In this document: piece after piece, positions 1-7,373 of the stretch | Layout: each line of letters begins with the position of its first letter | Numbering within the stretch: the stretch's first letter is position 1 | IMG/VR virus record: IMGVR_UViG_2563366799_000005 | Direction: 5' to 3' (one strand) | From: a virus | Lineage: Duplodnaviria > Heunggongvirae > Uroviricota > Caudoviricetes | DNA: 9,993 nucleotides | Notes under the pieces: generated by a model | Seen by the model: only the letters and a program-made list of their open reading frames with translations | Database searches by the model: none | Told to the model about the DNA's origin: nothing | Position numbers and translations under genes: made by a program

Positions 1-1053
1 TTACGGGGTAATGCCAACCGCTGCCGCCACTTTGTCGCCACTTGGCAGCGTTGCCAGAGGATTGAAACGGAGCGCCGTTTCCAGATGATCCGGTGCCAGA
101 TGAGCGTAACGCATAGTCATTTTTATATCGTGATGTCCGAGGATTTTTTGCAAAGCAAGGATATTTCCACCCGACATCATGAAATGCGCCGCAAACGTAT
201 GGCGCAGAACGTGTGTCAGTTGACCGCGAGGGAGCACGATTGACGTTTTTTCCATCACGGATAAAAATTGAAAATAGCAGTCTGTGAAGAAATTGAACCC
301 ATCAAGCGCCATGATCTCTTCATAAAGCTCTTTACTGATAGGGATGCTTCTGTTTTTCTTCCCCTTCGTTCTTACAAAGGTAATTCGGTATTTAGTCACC
401 TGTGATCGGGTAAGGTTTATTGCTTCTCGCCAGCGTGCGCCTGTGCTTAAGCATATCTTGACTACCAGTGCCAGAATTGGGTCCTGACGTTTGCAATCAG
501 CCAGCAGTTCAACAATCTGCTCATGGGTAAGCCATGCCATCTCTTTTTCTGCGATGGTGAATTTTCGCATGTTCTCCAGTGGGTTTGGATACGACCATTC
601 GCCCAGGCGGGATAGTTCGCTAAAAACACTACTTAGATAGCTTTGCTCCAGGTTAATGGTGACCGGGCTTGCTCCTTTCTTCCATTTCTCGCTGAAGTAG
701 ATCTCACCTGTCAGGCGTTTATCTCGATAGTGGGCAAACATTTTAGAGGTGAGATCGGTTGCAAGGGGATTGCCCAGAGCGTCAACCATCAACAGCAATT
801 TATCATAGACATGCTGCCCAGCGGTTAGAGATTTACCATGTAGTTTGAACCATAGCTCAACCACGTCTTTCAGTGTTCGACGATCCACTGATTCTCCCAG
901 CCAGGGCTTTGCTTCGGTTTCTTCCATCGTATGGCGCTCAAAAGCCAGAGCTTCGCCTTTGGTGGCGAATTGTTTACGCACACGACGCCCACTACGTCCG
1001 GCGGGGTAACATTCGCAAAGCCATTTTCCTGTGGTGAGTTTTCGTACTGCCAT
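1..1053 (-). CDS. int: Tyrosine integrase, P2/186 family (350 aa from ATG at 1053; stop at 1-3)
   Basis: N-terminus MAVRKLTTGKW...GRRVRKQFATKGEALAFE resembles P2 Int. Catalytic signature present: TGARWREA, HVLRHTFA, GHHDIKMTMRYAHL (R...H-x-x-R...Y). GGAGGG RBS 8 nt upstream of ATG 1053. The longer ORF to 1131 has no better start. Confidence 0.9.
   Translation of the reverse strand: MAVRKLTTGKWLCECYPAGRSGRRVRKQFATKGEALAFERHTMEETEAKPWLGESVDRRTLKDVVELWFKLHGKSLTAGQHVYDKLLLMVDALGNPLATDLTSKMFAHYRDKRLTGEIYFSEKWKKGASPVTINLEQSYLSSVFSELSRLGEWSYPNPLENMRKFTIAEKEMAWLTHEQIVELLADCKRQDPILALVVKICLSTGARWREAINLTRSQVTKYRITFVRTKGKKNRSIPISKELYEEIMALDGFNFFTDCYFQFLSVMEKTSIVLPRGQLTHVLRHTFAAHFMMSGGNILALQKILGHHDIKMTMRYAHLAPDHLETALRFNPLATLPSGDKVAAAVGITP
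19..40. repeat. Candidate attL core (left copy of the 22-bp direct repeat), inside the 3' end of int
   Basis: cgctgccgccactttgtcgcca at 19-40 matches 7139-7160 at 21/22 positions (single mismatch at position 30 vs 7150). Identity is lost immediately outside on both sides. Confidence 0.6.
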
Positions 1054-1239
1054 AAAAAATGCCCTCCAATAGAGAGCATTTTTACTGTATATATAACCAG
1101 TGTCAATGTATGAAATCCTGCGACCATACATCTCACTGAAGCCATAATGAAGTTGGCTATTTTTTGCTATGTGAGTATGTGACTTTTGCGGTTAGCCTGC
1201 GGCTCATTGTTATATTAGGCGCAGATATAAAAGCAAAAT

Positions 1240-1431
1240 TTATCGCGAGTTTTTAGTACAGATTTTTTTTGATTTACTAATAGTTCCATCATTGCAAACG
1301 AACTTTCCATCGGAGGTACAGTGAGAGACACCTCCCTTTTTCCCAGAACAAGGATAATTTTTAGCATAGGTAGTTAGTGGGTTTAATAACAAAGAGCATG
1401 ATAAAACCACAAAAAATACCTTACCAAGCAT
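1240..1431 (-). CDS. Hypothetical small secreted cysteine-rich, lysine-rich peptide (63 aa precursor); moron between cI and int
   Basis: Strong SD (GGGAGG) 5 nt upstream of the ATG and only 4 nt after the cI stop. N-terminus looks like a Sec signal peptide (MLGK + [12 protein letters not shown] + NPLTTYA, likely cleavage after TYA). Predicted mature part about 39 aa with 4 Cys, 8 Lys, net charge about +7. Locally very AT-rich. No family recognised. Confidence 0.5.
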
Positions 1432-1446
1432 AGTTTCCTCCCGGTA

Positions 1447-2016
1447 TTACCTAACGTACTTAATTGTTAAACTTATAATTTTCCCAATTATTTCAACATC
1501 TTCTATCTTGCACTCGAAGGCTCTGTTTCCACCTTCAACGAAGATTCTTCCACCGGGTAAACGAGTAATGTCGCGGATTGTTATTTCGCCATCAATACTT
1601 ATTACCCATTTACCGTCACGTATATCATCAAATTCTTTATCACAAATAAATTCAGAATTGTTATCTGTGATGACAAAAGGTTTTTTAAACGTAGAGGGTA
1701 GAAATCCCTTATCAAAAATATAAAAACCGTCTTCACGCAAGGCACCATCAGATAATACATATTTAGCAACTTCCATAGTATTTGTATTACCTGAAGTTTG
1801 CTTTGAACCATGTCCGGTTGTGAGCCAATTAAGCGAGGTGCCCGTTTCAAGGGCGCACTGGATTACCCATTCTGCTGGGAATGAGTCACGCATGTAGCGT
1901 GTGGCGAGTGTACTTTTAGAGATTCCTAAATGATCGCACAACGCCTGTCGAGTTTTGAATCCATAAGCTTCTACCATGCGCTCTATAGCGCCTCGTCCGC
2001 CTTTCTCCAAATTCAT
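1447..2016 (-). CDS. cI: Phage 186 CI-type immunity repressor (189 aa from ATG at 2016; GTG at 2022 is an alternative)
   Basis: N-terminal HTH (TRQALCDHLGISKSTLATRYMRDS) plus a C-terminal domain. Size of about 190 aa matches 186 CI, not the roughly 99-aa P2 C. Divergent from apl/cII across a short switch region. GGAG RBS 6 nt before the ATG. Confidence 0.85.
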   Translation of the reverse strand: MNLEKGGRGAIERMVEAYGFKTRQALCDHLGISKSTLATRYMRDSFPAEWVIQCALETGTSLNWLTTGHGSKQTSGNTNTMEVAKYVLSDGALREDGFYIFDKGFLPSTFKKPFVITDNNSEFICDKEFDDIRDGKWVISIDGEITIRDITRLPGGRIFVEGGNRAFECKIEDVEIIGKIISLTIKYVR

Positions 2017-2022
2017 GGTCAC

Positions 2023-2141
2023 TCCAAGTGAACTTTTATCTTGACGATTTCACTGTACGATCGTATGTTTATGGTGTTCACAAAATACAAACGATCCGTA
2101 TTCGTCCTGATTAATCATCATTAAACGAGGAATGTTGCATC
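2023..2141. promoter_or_regulatory. Lysis/lysogeny switch region between cI and apl, with candidate rightward lytic promoter and palindromic operator
   Basis: Candidate sigma70 promoter on + strand: TTGACG (2041-2046), 17-bp spacer, TATGTT (2064-2069). Perfect 10-bp palindrome TACGATCGTA (2056-2065) overlaps the spacer and -10. Related repeat ACGATCCGTAT at 2091-2101. Inverted hexamers GTGAAC (2028-2033) and GTTCAC (2075-2080). The leftward lysogenic promoter could not be placed confidently. Confidence 0.5.
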
Positions 2142-2363
2142 ATGAGACCTAACATTTCAATCACTCTTACCACGCCTCATGTGACTATTGAACGCTATAG
2201 CGAGCTGACAGGGCTGTCCATCGATACCATCAATGACATGTTGGCTGACGGACGCCTTATCCGTCACCGTCTGCGCAAAGATAAAAAACGTGAAAAAGTG
2301 ATGATCAACATAGCAGCCATGACCGTTGATGCGCTTTCAGAATGCAATCTAAACCTTAATTAG
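2142..2363 (+). CDS. apl: Apl/Cox-like small HTH protein (excisionase / switch regulator), 73 aa
   Basis: First gene of the rightward early operon, directly downstream of the switch. HTH-like segment [26 protein letters not shown]. Assignment rests on position and size as for 186 apl / P2 cox. GAGG RBS upstream. Confidence 0.6.
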
Positions 2364-2395
2364 TTCGATTCTGAAATACATCAGAGGCATTGACC

Positions 2396-2905
2396 ATGTT
2401 TGATTACCAAGTTTCCAAACATCCACATTTTGATGAAGCCTGTCGTGCATTCGCATTGCGCCACAACCTAGTGCAACTGGCAGAACGTGCAGGCATGAAT
2501 GTGCAGATTCTGCGGAACAAGCTGAACCCAGCTCAACCTCATTTATTAACCGCACCAGAAATCTGGTTGCTTACCGATCTGACTGAAGATTCAACGCTGG
2601 TAGATGGCTTTCTGGCACAGATTCACTGCCTGCCATGTGTACCGATTAATGAGGTGGCAAAAGAGAAACTGCCGCATTACGTCATGAGTGCAACTGCAGA
2701 GATAGGGCGTGTCGCGGCAGGTGCGGTTTCTGGCGATGTAAAAACCAGTGCAGGCCGTCGTGATGCGATCAGCAGCATTAACTCTGTTACACGACTGATG
2801 GCGCTGGCTGCTGTTTCATTGCAGGCCCGTTTACAGGCTAATCCTGCGATGGCGAGTGCAGTTGATACCGTGACTGGCCTCGGTGCTTCATTCGGTTTGC
2901 TGTGA
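2396..2905 (+). CDS. cII: Phage 186 CII-type regulatory protein (169 aa from ATG 2396; ORF track starts at TTG 2390)
   Basis: Position immediately after apl. Length of 169 aa equals the size I remember for 186 CII. HTH-like segment [27 protein letters not shown] 8 nt before ATG 2396. Confidence 0.8.
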
Positions 2906-2912
2906 GGTGCTT

Positions 2913-3113
2913 ATGCTGACGAAAGAACCATCATTTGCATCGCTGCTAGTAAAACAAAGTCCGGCAATGCACTACGGTCACGGCTGGATCATGGGTGAGG
3001 ATGGTAAACGCTGGCATCCGTGCCGTTCACAAGATGAATTGCTGGCAGAACTATCTACGAAAAAACGGGGTAACAAATGGCTATTGAAGGCGCTGCGGCG
3101 ACTGTTCCATTAA
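2913..3113 (+). CDS. Hypothetical early protein (66 aa), in the position of 186 fil
   Basis: ATG at 2913 with GAGGTG RBS, starting 8 nt after the cII stop. ORF track gives an upstream GTG at 2883 that would overlap cII. No recognisable motif; the 186 fil analogy is by synteny only. Confidence 0.45.
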   Translation: MLTKEPSFASLLVKQSPAMHYGHGWIMGEDGKRWHPCRSQDELLAELSTKKRGNKWLLKALRRLFH

Positions 3114-3418
3114 GACCCGGTGAACGCCTGAATGGACTTAATCATATTGCGGAGTTAAGGGCGAAAGTTTTTGGTTTGAATATTGAGTCAGAGCTTGAGC
3201 GGTTTATTAAAGATATGCGTGATCCTCGGGATATCAATAATGAACAAAATAAACGGGCACTGGCTGCCATATTCTTTATGGCAAAAATTCCAGCTGAACG
3301 TCATAGCATCAGCATTAATGAGCTGACCACTGACGAAAAGCGGGAGTTGATTAAAGCAATGAATCATTTTCGTGCAGTGGTGAGCTTATTTCCCAGACGG
3401 CTAACCATGCCGAATTAA
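3077..3418 (+). CDS. Hypothetical early protein (113 aa), in the position of 186 dhr
   Basis: ATG at 3077 with GGGG RBS; overlaps the preceding ORF by 37 nt in another frame. No recognisable motif; the dhr analogy is by synteny only. Confidence 0.45.
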   Translation: MAIEGAAATVPLRPGERLNGLNHIAELRAKVFGLNIESELERFIKDMRDPRDINNEQNKRALAAIFFMAKIPAERHSISINELTTDEKRELIKAMNHFRAVVSLFPRRLTMPN

Positions 3419-3485
3419 CCAACTAATGAAATTAATGGCGTAAACCCGCCGGGCATCCCTTTATCTAAATTCAGGAGAATTGCTT

Positions 3486-3719
3486 ATGCGTAATATTGAA
3501 ACCCTCACGACCAAAACCGGACCGGATGATGCAGGTCTTAATCTTTTACTGACAGAGGCTCGTCTGGAAGAACGCCGGGCAAGGGCTGAAGCAATGGCTG
3601 CTCGCCTCGATAGCCTGGCGTGTCATATCACCTCCCGCCAGCTAAACCACGTCGAAGCGGCAGAACTGCTGCGTGTGACTGCTGAAGCAATCCAGAACGA
3701 AGCGCAGGAGATCCACTGA
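3486..3719 (+). CDS. Hypothetical early protein (77 aa), predicted helical; last gene before the rearrangement junction
   Basis: ATG 3486 with AGGAG RBS 9 nt upstream (ORF track starts at TTG 3480). Stop at 3717-3719 lies about 25 bp from where capsid homology begins on the opposite strand, so the 3' end may be junction-derived. Confidence 0.4.
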   Translation: MRNIETLTTKTGPDDAGLNLLLTEARLEERRARAEAMAARLDSLACHITSRQLNHVEAAELLRVTAEAIQNEAQEIH

Positions 3720-3741
3720 TGGCTGATGCAATGGATCTCGT

Positions 3742-4098
3742 ACACAGGTCCAGCTTCGCGTAGGTCAGCACCGTGTCAAAGTTGGTCTGCTCACATTTAT
3801 ATTCCACATCGACCATCAGCGTCGGATCGACAGGCTCACGCTCTTTTGCGGTGGTATCAGTGGTTCCGGCAATGGTGCTGCCAACACCCAGCCCCAGCAA
3901 CTGACCGGACTGCTCAGTCACTGGCGTGACGTTAATCAGCGTCAGGAATGCGGCGGATTGCTGGATCTGGTCTTCCAGCGTCTGCTGCACAGACGGCTCC
4001 ACGGTGAACTTGCTGGACAGTTCTTCAACTGCCACACCGTTCAGACGCGCCAGCTGCTGCAGGTAAGCGTTAAAAGCAAAGCGGGTATTCTTCTTCAT
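3742..4098 (-). pseudogene. 5' fragment of P2-family major capsid protein gene (gpN-like, first about 119 codons), inverted relative to expected orientation
   Basis: Translation MKKNTRFAFNAYL...LNG...KFTVEPSVQQTL...FLTLINVTPV...GSTIAGTTDTT...EYKCEQTNFD...YAKLDL follows the N-terminus of P2 gpN as I recall it (MRQETRFKFNAYL...KFTVEPSVTQTL...GSIASTTDT...YECDQINFD...YKTLDL). Similarity stops near nt 3742; the ORF then runs on as antisense of the upstream gene to 3628. GGAG RBS upstream of ATG 4098. Confidence 0.75.
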
Positions 4099-4199
4099 CG
4101 GGTTTTGTGCTCCATCAGCAATTGGTCAGAGTGTCAGCGGGGGCGTTACCGCCTGTTGCACGCTGGCGGTAGTCCTGGCGGCTGTCTTCATGACTCAGC

Positions 4200-6689
4200 T
4201 TGTCCACCAGTTCGTTAAAGGCGGTTTACTGCTGGGCACGCGCCATGCTCAACGAACGATACCAGGACTATGACGCCACGGCATCCGGTGTGAAGCGAGG
4301 CGAGGAACTGGCAGAAGCCAGCGGTGATTTGTGGCGTGACGCCCGCTGGGCCATCAGCCGGGTACAGGAACTTCAGCAGACCTATAACGGCTTGTTGGGG
4401 GCGGTCCAGAGACAACGTCAGGCACTTAAAGAATCAGGGATTGATACCAGACAACTCAGTAGTGCCCAGCGAGAACTTAAGAAAAATGCCGAAGAAACTC
4501 GTCAGGCACTGGAGGGCCAGCAAAAAGCACTTAAACGTCTGGGTGAACAACAGGCACGGATGAACGCTGCCAGAGAACAATACTCAAGACGGCTTGAAGT
4601 GCGCGATCGCATCGCAGGAGCCGGAGCCACCACCACGGCTGCAGGGCTGGCAATGGGCGCGCCAGTGATGGCGGCGGTAAAAAGCTATACCAGCATGGAA
4701 GATGCCATGAAAGGTGTGGCAAAGCAGGTCAATGGTCTGCGTGACGATAATGGCAACCGCACTGCGCGTTTTTACGAAATGCAGGATGCCATCAAAGCTG
4801 CCAGTGAACAGCTGCCAATGGAAAACGGTGCTGTGGACTTCGCCGCACTGGTTGAAGGTGGTGCGCGCATGAATGTGGCAAACCCTGACGACAGCTGGGA
4901 GGACCAGAAACGTGACCTGCTGGCCTTCGCCAGTACGGCAGCAAAGGCGGCAACAGCCTTTGAGCTGCCAGCGGATGAACTGTCAGAAAGTCTGGGGAAA
5001 ATCGCCCAGCTCTACAAAATACCAACCCGCAATATTGAACAGCTCGGTGATGCGCTGAACTATCTGGATGATAACGCTATGTCGAAAGGGGCAGACATCA
5101 TTGATGTCATGCAACGCCTGGGCGGTGTGGCTGATCGTCTGGATTATCGTAAAGCGGCGGCGCTGGGTTCCACCTTCCTGACACTGGGTGCTGCGCCGGA
5201 GGTCGCTGCCAGTGCTGCCAACGCGATGGTGCGTGAATTGTCCATTGCGACCATGCAAAGCAAGAGTTTCTTTGAAGGAATGAATCTGCTGAAACTCAAT
5301 CCTGAAGTGATTGAAAAGCAGATGACGAAGGATGCGATGGGAACTATCCAGCGCGTACTGGAGAAGGTGAATGCACTGCCGCAGGATAAGCGCCTGTCTG
5401 CCATGACCATGTTGTTTGGTAAAGAGTTTGGCGATGATGCGGCGAAACTGGCAAACAACCTGCCGGAACTGCAGCGCCAGCTAAAACTGACAGCGGGCAA
5501 TGATGCGCTCGGTTCGATGCAGAAAGAATCCGACATTAACAAGGACTCACTTTCTGCGCAGTGGTTGCTGGTCAAAACCGGAGCGCAGAACACCTTCAGC
5601 AGCCTGGGCGAAACGCTGCGCCAGCCGCTGATGGATATTCTGTACACGGTGAAAAGCATCACGGGGGCGTTGCGTTGCTGGGTGGAAGCTAACCCTGAAC
5701 TGACGGGCACACTGATGAAAGTAGCAGCGGTTGTGGCTGCTGTTACTGTGGGCCTCGGCACCCTGGCTGTGGTGTTGGCTGCTGTGCTGGGGCCGCTGGC
5801 AGTCATCCGTCTGGGATTCTCTGTGCTGGGTATCAAAACGTTACCTTCCGTTACGGCAGCAGTAACGCGAACCAGCAGCGCGTTGTCCTGGTTGGCTGGC
5901 GCACCACTTGCACTGCTGCGACGCGGGCTTGCTTCATCGGGCAACGCCGCAGGTTTACTTACTGCGCCGTTGTCGTCTTTGCGCCGCACGGCATCACTGA
6001 CGGGAAATGTCCTGAAAACTGTAGCAGGTGCGCCGGTTGCACTTTTGCGGTCTGGATTATCCGGTTTACGTGCTGTTGCTGTGATGTTTATGAATCCTCT
6101 GGCGGTACTGCGCGGTGGACTGGCCTCCGCAGGCACGGTGCTGCGAATACTGGCATCTGGTCCACTGGCGATGCTGCGCGTTGCCCTGTATGCCGTATCT
6201 GGTCTGTTAGGTGCTCTGCTCAGTCCGATAGGTCTTGTGGTTACTGCACTGGCGGGCGTGGCGCTGGTTGTCTGGAAATACTGGCAACCCATCACCGCAT
6301 TTCTTGGTGGCGTGGTGGAAGGATTCAAAGCGGCGGCAGGTCCCGTCAGTGCAGCATTCGAACCGCTTAAGCCAGTGTTCCAGTGGATTGGCGACAAAGT
6401 ACAGGCGCTGTGGGGCTGGTTTACTGATCTGCTGACGCCCGTTAAGTCGACCTCTGCCGAACTGCAGAGCGCAGCGGCAATGGGGCGACGATTCGGGGAG
6501 GCACTGGCGGAAGGGCTGAATATGGTCATGCATCCGCTGGACTCCCTGAAATCCGGCGTTTCCTGGTTGCTGGAGAAACTCGGCATTGTCAGTAAAGAGG
6601 CTGCAAAGGCGAAACTGCCGGAAAGAGTGACGCGTCAGCAAACCGTCGTCCGTCCACGCAGTTTCTGGGACCGGACAACGACATGCTGA
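4200..6689 (+). CDS. Phage tail tape measure protein (gpT-like); 829 aa from TTG 4200 or 814 aa from ATG 4245; both ends abut junctions
   Basis: Long alpha-helical, Gln/Ala/Leu-rich N-terminal half, hydrophobic Gly/Ala/Leu segment, and six degenerate repeats with 22-aa period (GAPLALLRRGL, TAPLSSLRRTA, GAPVALLRSGL, NPLAVLRGGL, SGPLAMLRVAL; nt about 5784-6186). In-frame stop at 4191-4193 leaves no room for more N-terminus and no good SD precedes either start. The last about 30 codons overlap the D-fragment frame. Confidence 0.85.
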   Translation: MSTSSLKAVYCWARAMLNERYQDYDATASGVKRGEELAEASGDLWRDARWAISRVQELQQTYNGLLGAVQRQRQALKESGIDTRQLSSAQRELKKNAEETRQALEGQQKALKRLGEQQARMNAAREQYSRRLEVRDRIAGAGATTTAAGLAMGAPVMAAVKSYTSMEDAMKGVAKQVNGLRDDNGNRTARFYEMQDAIKAASEQLPMENGAVDFAALVEGGARMNVANPDDSWEDQKRDLLAFASTAAKAATAFELPADELSESLGKIAQLYKIPTRNIEQLGDALNYLDDNAMSKGADIIDVMQRLGGVADRLDYRKAAALGSTFLTLGAAPEVAASAANAMVRELSIATMQSKSFFEGMNLLKLNPEVIEKQMTKDAMGTIQRVLEKVNALPQDKRLSAMTMLFGKEFGDDAAKLANNLPELQRQLKLTAGNDALGSMQKESDINKDSLSAQWLLVKTGAQNTFSSLGETLRQPLMDILYTVKSITGALRCWVEANPELTGTLMKVAAVVAAVTVGLGTLAVVLAAVLGPLAVIRLGFSVLGIKTLPSVTAAVTRTSSALSWLAGAPLALLRRGLASSGNAAGLLTAPLSSLRRTASLTGNVLKTVAGAPVALLRSGLSGLRAVAVMFMNPLAVLRGGLASAGTVLRILASGPLAMLRVALYAVSGLLGALLSPIGLVVTALAGVALVVWKYWQPITAFLGGVVEGFKAAAGPVSAAFEPLKPVFQWIGDKVQALWGWFTDLLTPVKSTSAELQSAAAMGRRFGEALAEGLNMVMHPLDSLKSGVSWLLEKLGIVSKEAAKAKLPERVTRQQTVVRPRSFWDRTTTC

Positions 6690-6829
6690 CGCTTTCCGGT
6701 GTTCTTATGCCGGAGATAGATGATGCGGAATGGACCATTACGACTCTGACACATACCGTCAGCTCGGATAACGGTTTTACGACCAGTCTGGAGCTTGAAG
6801 TGAGGATTGATGATTTCGAAATGGAATGA
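6596..6829 (+). pseudogene. Probable 3' remnant of tail gene D (or the U/D block), fused out of frame to the tape-measure 3' end
   Basis: Short ORF ending MLTLSGVLMPEIDDAEWTITTLTHTVSSDNGFTTSLELEVRIDDFEME, located exactly where D ends in P2/186 (immediately upstream of ogr). The assignment is mainly positional; I cannot recall the D C-terminus reliably. Confidence 0.4.
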
Positions 6830-6919
6830 TTCTTCGCAATGGAGAACTTTTAAGTTTGCAAAATGGAATAATGCGGTATCATTATTGTGAATTTAGCAAA
6901 AATGGGGAGAACTCGAAAA

Positions 6920-7138
6920 ATGATGATTTGCCCACTGTGTGGAAGTGCCGCCCATACTCGCAGCAGTTTTCAGGTATCTTCATTGACCAAAGAGCGTTAC
7001 AACCAGTGCCAGAATATTAACTGCAGCCATACTTTTGTAACCCATGAAACTTTTGTTCGTTCGATTGCAACGCCAAAAGAGTCAAATCCGGTTCAGCCGC
7101 ATCCAATGAAATCAGGACAGGTGGCGCTCTCTCTTTGA
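6920..7138 (+). CDS. ogr: Ogr/Delta-family zinc-finger late transcription activator (72 aa)
   Basis: MMICPLCGSAAHTRSS...KERYNQCQNINCSHTF...VQPHP follows P2 Ogr as I recall it (MFHCPLCQHAAHARTS...KERYHQCQNVNCSATF...VRPHP), with the CxxC...CxxxxC zinc motif. Length of 72 aa equals P2 Ogr. GGGGAGA RBS about 9 nt before ATG 6920. Stop is immediately followed by the right repeat copy. Confidence 0.9.
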   Translation: MMICPLCGSAAHTRSSFQVSSLTKERYNQCQNINCSHTFVTHETFVRSIATPKESNPVQPHPMKSGQVALSL

Positions 7139-7160: not shown

Positions 7161-7218
7161 TCGTTAAAAAACAGTGCTTCTAACGTCATGATTTTAAACG
7201 GCATAAATTTCAGGCAAC

Positions 7219-7261
7219 AAAAAACCCATCAACCTTGAACCGAAATGGCGGGGTTGATGGG
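7219..7261 (-). terminator. Rho-independent terminator-like hairpin downstream of ybjL
   Basis: On the minus strand: 10-bp stem CCCATCAACC / GGTTGATGGG (7225-7234 with 7252-7261), 17-nt loop, followed by TTTTTT (complement of 7219-7224). No U-tract on the + strand side. Confidence 0.5.
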
Positions 7262-7373
7262 CTCCACAAAATGGGGACATCAAAGAAAAGCAGTGGCACT
7301 AATTAAGACTGATGCCCTGCGGAAAAGTTCTGCGGTTGTGCAAAAAAATTTCATTTTCAGGGCAACTTCAGTT

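Follow-up and report, generated by a model that had tools for sequence, protein, structure and literature searches.

We analyzed a stretch of viral DNA of 9,993 nucleotides (hereafter, the window) and found that its positions 1-2905 are the left end of a decayed 186/P2-family prophage in rybB of E. coli. They carry an ordinary and probably functional immunity module within a cryptic prophage. Taken as a whole, the window is best explained by a prophage of the 186-related Rybb lineage (Peduoviridae) that integrated at the 3' end of rybB and was recently truncated, an explanation in which we have good confidence. A preliminary description of this DNA had proposed an intact 186-type module in an otherwise defective element. 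The remainder of the element is indeed debris, and the label "186-type" holds for architecture, gene families and switch geometry. It does not hold for specificity, since CI is only 32% identical to its 186 counterpart, Apl is barely alignable and the pR region is unrelated.

The rybB sRNA gene was located on the minus strand at 7216..7294 (Rfam RybB, 105 bits, model positions 1-79 of 79). The 14-bp attR core, AACAAAAAACCCAT, occupies 7216-7229 at the 3' end of rybB and recurs at attL, 75 bp to the left of the window (L001 5913-5926), indicating duplication of the core at integration. The rybB ncRNA is the listed insertion site of the P2-type Rybb prophages, found in E. coli B, W and Crooks (PMC3032704). 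The window element shares both this site and the att core with them. Furthermore, the REL606 prophage has the same accessions for Apl, CII, Fil, DUF5347 and DUF2732, and its CI is identical in the N-terminal domain and 97% identical overall. Unlike these prophages, the window copy lacks about three quarters of the element, including the defence-cargo hotspot (retron-bearing in E. coli B), and contains an inverted head-gene fragment. The Rybb 186-related family is already known, and the window element is a further remnant of it; Dodd and Egan reportedly dealt in 1996 with a 186-related prophage of E. coli B, that of retron-Ec86. Another decayed P2-family prophage, the ogr-D' remnant at cyaR of E. 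coli K-12 (PMC3032704, Table 2), similarly keeps an att-proximal ogr and a D fragment. However, the K-12 remnant has lost the int/immunity end, whereas the window keeps both ends and a complete switch.

An almost identical locus is present in E. coli G3/10, the only place in that genome matched by a 7.4-kb query in megablast. The four open reading frames attributed to int, cI, apl and cII coincide with RefSeq coding sequences of this locus (named integrase, CI, hypothetical 73-aa protein and CII-family protein), and the four proteins have the same accessions in longer relatives. The earlier statement that these genes are complete and preceded by ribosome binding sites was thus confirmed, with slight corrections of the starts. 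A comparison of positions 1-3744 with the prophage of strain 95-3322, which is nearly full length, revealed 3 substitutions, one at 2057 in the pR spacer and two in fil (2948 and 3071), the latter judged synonymous by codon reading. The truncation looks recent from this comparison. Because only these 3 substitutions in 3.7 kb separate the module from the long prophage, its intactness is no evidence of selection or retention.

The first gene, int (minus strand, 1..1053, stop codon at 1-3), encodes a tyrosine integrase of 350 aa with the Pfam domains Int_N and Phage_integrase. It is 56% identical to 186 Int and has the same protein accession in 95-3322 and APEC O78. Its likely start is 1053 rather than the start of the open reading frame at 1131, and a Shine-Dalgarno-like GGAGGG precedes it. 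Between int and cI lies a cargo gene overlooked in the preliminary description, orf63 (minus strand, 1240..1431), encoding a Cys-rich protein of 63 aa of the YdcA family (NCBIfam NF007463, 116 bits against a cut-off of 93; phrog_6000), under which name several genomes annotate it. Read by eye, its N terminus is hydrophobic and signal-like, and the product is apparently secreted.

The repressor gene cI (minus strand, 1447..2016, 189 aa) likely starts at ATG 2016 rather than at GTG 2022 and is preceded by a Shine-Dalgarno-like GGAG. The protein belongs to the 186 family of immunity repressors: PF07022 (Phage_CI_repr, HTH) covers residues 11-74 with 114.5 bits against a cut-off of 22, and PF16452 (Phage_CI_C, oligomerisation) covers residues 85-183 with 99 bits against 27, while Peptidase_S24 reached 16.7 bits, below its cut-off of 23.3. 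The 186 CI structure (PDB 2fjr, chain A) was matched with an E value of 3.3e-31, query residues 10-183 aligning to chain residues 10-184. As supposed earlier, cI is undamaged; its DNA is identical in the window, 95-3322 and APEC O78. Compared with seven other alleles, pN/pS was 0.00-0.11, pointing to purifying selection across alleles, and apart from A55S in strain HL15 all amino acid differences among the alleles lie in the C-terminal half.

On the plus strand, the apl/cox-like gene (2142..2363), preceded by a Shine-Dalgarno-like GAGGA, encodes a protein of 73 aa (186 Apl has 87) predicted to be an excisionase and weak repressor. It falls into phrog_575 ("Cox-like excisionase and repressor") with an E value of 6e-31, as does 186 Apl (2.8e-9), and gave no match in Pfam or NCBIfam and no specific one in PDB. 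cII (plus strand, 2396..2905) encodes the establishment activator of 169 aa (Pfam Phage_CP76), likely starts at ATG 2396 rather than at TTG 2390, and is preceded by AGAGG, again Shine-Dalgarno-like. The Pfam scores of the Int, CI and CII domains are all well past their cut-offs. The homology search against 186 proposed earlier gave a different outcome for each regulator: CII is 69% identical over its full length, CI is 32% identical by BLASTP (39% in the N-terminal DNA-binding domain), and Apl is related at the profile level, direct BLASTP being marginal (E value of 0.007 in an 18-protein database). By eye, no convincing Apl-type repeat shared between the pR-pL interval and the att core was seen, the int-proximal att arm lying outside the window. 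A pE-like region overlaps the start of cII (minus strand, 2380..2422). It contains the CII half-sites ATGTTTG (2396-2402) and CAAACAT (2416-2422), 13 nt apart; ATGTTTG-N13-CAAACAT is unique in the window and identical in half-sites and spacing to positions 23435-23461 of 186. A weak candidate for the pE -10 element, TCTGAT (2385-2380, minus strand), was placed solely by its position relative to 186.

The proposed promoter at 2041-2069 (plus strand) matched the consensus as TTGACG-17-TATGTT. It has the position of 186 pR relative to cI and apl and is our candidate for the lytic promoter of apl-cII-fil. Facing it on the minus strand is a candidate for the lysogenic promoter pL (2132..2160), consisting of TTGAAA (2160-2155), a 17-nt spacer and CAACAT (2137-2132). 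An alignment of 8 relatives shows no variation in either pL hexamer. Counted from the apl ATG at 2142, the -35 element occupies +13 to +18 and the -10 element (2132-2137) occupies -10 to -5; both offsets are those of 186, where the former is annotated. The number of promoter matches returned by the consensus scan in this region, 7 against 6.0 in shuffles, shows no enrichment.

The gene content, identities, families and conserved sequences are observations, and on top of them we infer that the promoters are active, that CI binds its operators and gives immunity, and that LexA exerts control. By homology with 186, the left 3.7 kb would work as an unaltered lysogeny and early-control module. Leftward transcription from pL (about 2132-2160) would cover cI, orf63 and probably int. 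CI, with its HTH N-terminal domain and oligomerising C-terminal domain, would bind operators over pR and shut off apl-cII-fil-DUF5347-DUF2732, thereby also relieving convergent interference on pL. An incoming phage with the same operators would be repressed as well, which would provide superinfection immunity against Rybb-type phages, though probably not against 186.

The specificity of this immunity is suggested by the pR region. Candidate CI operator sequences surround pR at 2017..2081, namely GGTCAC-N5-GTGAAC (2017-2033), TTCAC (2049-2053) and GTTCAC (2076-2081). The region is kept only in loci whose CI N-terminal domain reaches 93% identity or more; elsewhere, different repeats stand in its place, so that the pR region and the CI N-terminal domain vary together in type. 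Searches for repeats and counts of motifs did not define the operators further: G[T/A]GAA[C/T] half-sites cluster at pR and upstream of ogr with no consistent dyad. The sequence GAACTTTTA is located 2 nt upstream of the -35 element at both pR and the ogr promoter. An operator at the ogr promoter covarying with CI type was also considered, but this was uninformative, because a remnant whose CI has another type of N-terminal domain carries the same sequence upstream of ogr. We recognised no counterparts of FL and FR, the distal sites of 186.

The preliminary description had suggested that CI could confer homoimmunity toward 186-like phages. Homoimmunity between the module and coliphage 186 itself seems to us very improbable. 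The protein families and the layout of the switch are common to both, GTGAAC and GAGAAC are similar to GTGAAT, the B-type half-site of 186, and the site GTCAC-N5-GTGAA is one mismatch away from the B-type pattern. However, this pattern occurs 3 times against 5.2 expected and is not enriched above chance, the pR/operator region gives no alignment with its counterpart in 186, and CI is as divergent as described above. With such a CI and an unrelated operator region, homoimmunity is expected only against phages of the window's own immunity type. Any immunity should therefore be directed at Rybb-type phages, and immunity toward 186 itself is probably absent, i.e., the two would be heteroimmune. 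Among the deposited phage genomes of the INPHARED collection, no CI was more than 54% identical to that of the window. The entry "vB_EcoM-813R9" is a prophage region with a different CI. The targets of such immunity are common, given that 530 of the 5426 complete genomes of E. coli (about 10%) contain the module and that all four randomly sampled carrier strains have an apparently full-length prophage with it at the same site (as judged from the first 17 kb to the right of cI).

The repressor could also be present but ineffective, through low expression or missing distal operators, and confer no immunity. The A at 2057 is shared by the window and G3/10 and private to this lineage among the loci compared (longer prophages have G), a cooperative distal site, had it lain in the deleted region, would be missing, and the operators at the ogr promoter are uncertain. 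On the other hand, cI, the promoters pL and pR and the whole 1.7 kb on the right side of cI show no change, and 2057 falls within a stretch (2053-2057) that is variable also among relatives with the same CI N-terminal domain. We therefore regard an ineffective repressor as improbable. The variability of 2053-2057 among such relatives also led us to reject the idea that the substitutions clustered there in several remnants represent adaptive changes of pR. The only change that looked potentially functional was found in HL15, where the pR -35 element TTGACG is changed to TTGGCG.

To the right of the module, the early genes continue on the plus strand with fil (2913-3113; Pfam; 82% identical to 186 Fil over 50 aa), a DUF5347 gene (3077-3418; Pfam) in the place of dhr, and a DUF2732 gene (3486-3719; Pfam; 46% identical to 186 orf80). 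The region 3743..6829 is late-gene debris, as determined by mapping on longer prophage loci and by the RefSeq pseudogenes of G3/10: inverted gpO'/gpN' (3743-4231, minus strand), gpL' (4215-4369), a tape measure gene truncated at both ends (about 4329-6641), gpU' (6640-6718) and gpD' (6715-6829). Pfam Phage_cap_P2 covers only positions 1-111 of 327 there. It is followed by the late activator gene ogr/B (6920-7138, plus strand, 72 aa; Pfam Ogr_Delta), whose product is 54% identical to 186 B and has an identical accession in all six remnants inspected. A candidate ogr promoter, TTTGCA-16-TATCAT (6855-6882, plus strand), was placed by eye.

In agreement with the earlier note, tblastn with the proteins of 186 and those of a relative's SOS operon, together with mapping onto the longer prophage, found no tum, replication gene A or lysis gene in the window. 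An internal deletion and rearrangement removed these together with the head genes. In 186, induction by the SOS response runs through Tum (PMC7708051). The relatives of the window carry, like 186, a tum-like operon with LexA boxes (21.5-25.1 bits) after the replication gene A, and its position is deleted in the window. Unlike in 186, tum is split into two open reading frames in these relatives. One encodes a DinI-like protein 41% identical to the C-terminal half of Tum. The product of the other is 62 aa long and has PHROGs 698, 8554 and 1993 in common with the N-terminal half; BLASTP of this product against Tum gave no match, and the link is solely via these common profiles. Having lost the LexA-controlled operon, the element would be unable to lift repression in cis upon DNA damage. 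The claim that it is uninducible by SOS and Tum is thus upheld for the antirepressor route in cis, but a related phage could still provide an effective Tum in trans, and the SOS input appears not to be wholly lost, a strong, conserved LexA box being left at the int promoter.

This box is located at 1083-1102 (core CTG-N10-CAG, 1085-1100). It fills the 17-nt spacer of the candidate int promoter, TTGACA-17-AAAAAT (1078..1106, minus strand), the best promoter-like match of the region with 10 of 12 positions. The box scored 25.4 bits with a weight matrix derived from known LexA boxes, which themselves score 12.5-26.5 bits. No other match in the window reached 8 bits, and 0 of 200 shuffles attained the score of this one. 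A LexA box was found upstream of int in all 17 inspected related loci with this int type (from the genera Escherichia, Klebsiella, Enterobacter and Ewingella, and from a MAG contig that bears the label Bacillota and that we took as mislabelled), and it is absent wherever int abuts cI, the arrangement of 186, where the cargo gene and the LexA-boxed promoter are missing. A scan of IMG/VR for the combined pattern of int promoter and LexA box returned six loci, none encoding a relative of any window protein, and these were considered chance matches. In the literature searched, we found no description of a LexA box at a P2-like integrase promoter. Integron integrase promoters are said to be LexA repressed (Guerin and colleagues, 2009). 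There, as here, the box overlaps the promoter of a tyrosine recombinase and ties recombination to the SOS response. Unlike integron integrases, the window recombinase is a phage integrase needing an excisionase from a separately repressed operon, and its LexA control is predicted from sequence. DNA damage would still derepress int through this box, and Int without Apl should not excise the element.

The comparison with other remnants bears on why the module persists. All six independently deleted remnants at this site retain int, orf63, cI and apl, the sample being small and biased by having been found by similarity to a cI-containing query. According to one view, to which we give slightly less than an even chance, the module is a neutral leftover, intact merely because the deletion is very recent, perhaps expressed, unselected and bound to decay. 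The near identity to the long prophage, including the identical cI, fits this view. This exact remnant form occurs in just 2 of 5426 genomes (at least 80% query coverage), and next to the full-length prophages of the four sampled carriers, remnants look like short-lived side branches. The repeated retention of the four genes argues against it, and the rough chance of five left breakpoints all falling to the right of apl is about 0.09; the events are few and suggestive only.

Alternatively, the persistence of cI may reflect survivorship. Loss of CI would derepress pR, after which Apl and Int would excise a non-replicating circle or Fil would block division, and only remnants with cI would be seen. 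Consistent with this, int, apl, attL and attR are all intact, cI is kept in all six remnants, and fil is retained, the 186 record stating that overexpressed Fil blocks division. Yet strains HL15 and LR-27 have lost fil and kept cI, the function of Apl is a prediction, and the sample is the small and biased one described above. We consider this explanation rather unlikely, less probable than a neutral leftover. A related proposal, which we put forward only tentatively, is that in this 186-related subgroup LexA represses a separate promoter of int, so that SOS would act through a second input alongside Tum and supply Int once pL is off. This input would persist in remnants lacking Tum, leaving an SOS-inducible recombinase beside a permanently repressed excisionase. 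If remnants without cI eliminate themselves via Apl and Int or via Fil, retention of the repressor would be enforced and not accidental.

Overall, the window illustrates that a 186-family switch can outlive the remainder of its phage. The phages that such a remnant could exclude are the common Rybb-type prophages of E. coli, probably not 186, which may bear on the phage susceptibility of commensal strains close to G3/10, an isolate from human faeces. The practical value is modest, since cryptic prophages that keep a repressor are commonplace. A by-product is of more use, namely a clear prediction that, in a phage family that has been studied in depth, LexA controls the promoter of an integrase.

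The window lies in the E. coli chromosome, between rcdA on one side and ybjL-ybjM-grxA on the other, and is nearly identical to the same locus of strain G3/10, from whose RefSeq chromosome it differs by single bases at 3071 and 9256. The sRNA gene rybB is complete at 7216-7294 on the minus strand (Rfam). Because its last 14 bases (7216-7229) recur 75 bp to the left of the window, we assigned these repeats as the attR and attL cores. Since this core is the 3' end of the rybB terminator, integration of the prophage regenerates rybB. The name Rybb has been given to P2-type prophages at the "rybB ncRNA" of E. coli B, W and Crooks, the copy in B carrying retron Ec86 (PMC3032704). The Apl, CII and Fil proteins of REL606 are the same as those of the window, and the N-terminal domains of the two CI proteins are identical.

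Positions 1-3744 are collinear with the near-full-length prophage found at the same insertion site in E. coli 95-3322. Just past the junction, at about 3744-3747, we found an inverted gpO'/gpN' piece of 489 bp (3743-4231), which overlaps by 17 bp a gpL piece of 155 bp (4215-4369), followed by a truncated tape-measure gene and then ogr. The junction at 3743-4369 is thus more than a simple deletion. Compared to G3/10, the window has two extra deletions, of 583 bp (about 6641) and 1288 bp (about 6715-6718), which take away the tape-measure 3' end and the greater part of both gpU and gpD. Given these deletions and the single-base differences, the window derives from a near relation of G3/10 or from a different assembly rather than from the RefSeq record itself. 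A G+C-rich region holds a 480-aa ORF (5144-6586, minus strand) on the strand opposite the tape-measure gene; it is probably a spurious open frame.

The ORF list and Pfam assignments bore out the gene order given in the preliminary description. On the minus strand lie int (ORF 1-1131, annotated start at 1053; Pfam integrase) and cI (ORF 1447-2022, ATG at 2016; both domains of the 186-type CI in Pfam), and on the plus strand a 73-aa ORF at the position of apl (2142-2363) and cII (ORF 2390-2905, ATG at 2396; Pfam CII, CP76). Each of the four starts is preceded by a Shine-Dalgarno-like motif, and the promoter proposed at 2041-2069 is a genuine consensus match (TTGACG-17-TATGTT). Further Pfam assignments in the window were Fil, DUF5347, DUF2732, the first third of the P2 capsid protein and Ogr. 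Between cI and int, we observed a Cys-rich ORF of 63 aa (orf63; 1240-1431, minus strand) of the YdcA family (NCBIfam NF007463, phrog_6000), with an apparently hydrophobic N terminus that by eye reads as a signal peptide. It is a cargo gene, predicted to be cotranscribed with cI in the lysogenic state.

The lysogeny module is intact. Only three substitutions separate positions 1-3744 from 95-3322, one at 2057 in the pR spacer and two in fil, both of which we judged synonymous after reading the codons by eye. The cI DNA is identical in the window, 95-3322 and the prophage of strain APEC O78, and the three share the protein accessions of Int, CI, the Apl-like protein and CII. Against seven other alleles, the pN/pS of cI was 0.00 to 0.11, and all amino acid differences among these alleles fell in the C-terminal half, with the sole exception of A55S in strain HL15. 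Point differences between remnants gather in the -35 region and spacer of pR (2044-2057, and the homologous positions of three related loci, L024-L026): G3/10 has A at 2057, LR-27 has C at 2056, and L9 and HL15 have T at 2053, HL15 additionally having a -35 changed from TTGACG to TTGGCG. Since relatives whose CI has the same N-terminal domain differ here as well, the stretch is probably under low constraint, perhaps with the exception of the -35 change in HL15.

We then compared the module with that of coliphage 186. Identities to the 186 proteins were 56% for Int, 32% for CI, 69% for CII, 82% for Fil and 54% for B/Ogr; the Apl-like protein matched 186 Apl only marginally (E 0.007), both belonging to PHROG 575, and CI matched the solved 186 CI structure (2fjr; E 3e-31). 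At the beginning of cII lies a CII binding site whose half-sites and spacing are identical to those of 186. The distance between the -35 of the candidate pL and the apl ATG equals that of the annotated 186 pL, and by our coordinates the same is true of the -10; both hexamers are invariant in eight relatives. However, the N-terminal domains of the two CI proteins share only 39% identity, and the pR/operator regions cannot be aligned. The earlier designation of the module as 186-type therefore holds for architecture and protein families but probably not for specificity.

CI is a domain mosaic, as seen by comparing the window with eight related loci (L005-L009, L023, L027 and L028). Among relatives, the type of pR region tracks the type of CI N-terminal domain, and the C-terminal domain is swapped independently. 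L006 and L007 have the pR region of the window and its N-terminal domain (93-94% identity), but their C-terminal domain is only 38-49% identical; L005 and WCHEC050613 have the window's C-terminal domain (94% identity), with a different N-terminal domain (82%) and a different pR region. Such covariation is the pattern that should be expected of an immunity-specificity unit. CI operators were sought in the window, and no exact definition was reached. The window contains just two copies of the 9-mer GAACTTTTA (2030-2038 and 6844-6852), each lying 2 nt upstream of a -35 hexamer, that of pR and that of a candidate ogr promoter. This 9-mer may represent a CI or UP-type element common to the two promoters, in keeping with a CI-repressed late activator as in 186.

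As had been described, tum, the replication gene A and the lysis genes are absent: tblastn with 186 Tum, A, holin and endolysin gave no match in the window. In the longer relatives, A is followed by a gene that has strong LexA boxes ahead of it and encodes a 62-aa protein having three PHROGs in common with the N-terminal half of Tum; the next ORF encodes a 77-aa DinI-like protein that matches the C-terminal half of Tum at 41% identity. By sequence, the two ORFs together are a split tum (28090-28583 in L002, about 23065-23560 in L036 and L037), with LexA boxes in front, double in L002 and L037. This operon falls inside the segment deleted from the window. Since SOS induction of 186 runs via LexA-controlled Tum (PMC7708051), the cis antirepressor route is lost. 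The proposal that the element is not SOS-inducible is thus correct for Tum, but it had overlooked a LexA box at the candidate int promoter.

The top promoter-like match of this region, TTGACA-17-AAAAAT (1106-1078, minus strand), lies 25 nt upstream of int, and its spacer is the LexA box CACTGGTTATATATACAGTA (1083-1102, minus strand). Scored with a weight matrix of known E. coli LexA boxes, which themselves range from 12.5 to 26.5 bits, this box reached 25.4 bits; no other match in the window came to 8 bits, and none of 200 shuffles attained its score. Upstream of int, this promoter and its box recur in all 17 inspected related loci having this int type (Escherichia, Klebsiella, Enterobacter, Ewingella and one MAG contig labelled Bacillota), and the DNA farther upstream is unrelated from genus to genus. 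Every match of 16 bits or more in the scanned loci fell either at the int promoter or within the early-operon region that holds the tum-like operon. Unlike in these loci, the box is absent from 186 and from relatives where int abuts cI. We found no description of a LexA box at such an int promoter in the literature searched, and this is the only feature of the element for which this was the case.

Of 5426 complete E. coli genomes, 530 contain the orf63-cI-apl segment at a coverage of at least 80%. In four carriers, chosen so as to span the range of identities, the first 17 kb to the right of cI showed neither pseudogenes nor deletions, and the portal-adjacent defence-type cargo differed in each. 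In longer relatives (L002, L027 and L035-L039), the cos-proximal slot, which runs from the DinI-like gene to the portal gene, holds a different cargo in each strain, be it an AIPR, TIR-domain or Abi-like protein, GmrSD or a retron St85-family system. Retron Ec86 of E. coli B occupies this same slot, which is wholly deleted in the window. The window's remnant form reached 80% query coverage in only two genomes. Five more independently deleted remnants at the same site, a small and biased sample, all kept int, orf63, cI, apl and ogr, which is compatible with selection, with self-elimination of cI-less remnants or with simple internal deletion.

Overall, the element is a 186-related prophage of an ordinary kind, truncated recently and unaltered in its lysogeny module. 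Judging from its sequence, homoimmunity with 186 itself is unlikely; its predicted function is most likely to repress its own early genes and to confer immunity to common Rybb-type phages. The LexA box predicts SOS-inducible integrase expression independent of Tum. Cargo between cI and int would uncouple int from pL, and a LexA-controlled promoter could plausibly supply Int at the very moment that Tum relieves repression and Apl is produced. In the remnant studied here, DNA damage should raise Int, not Apl.
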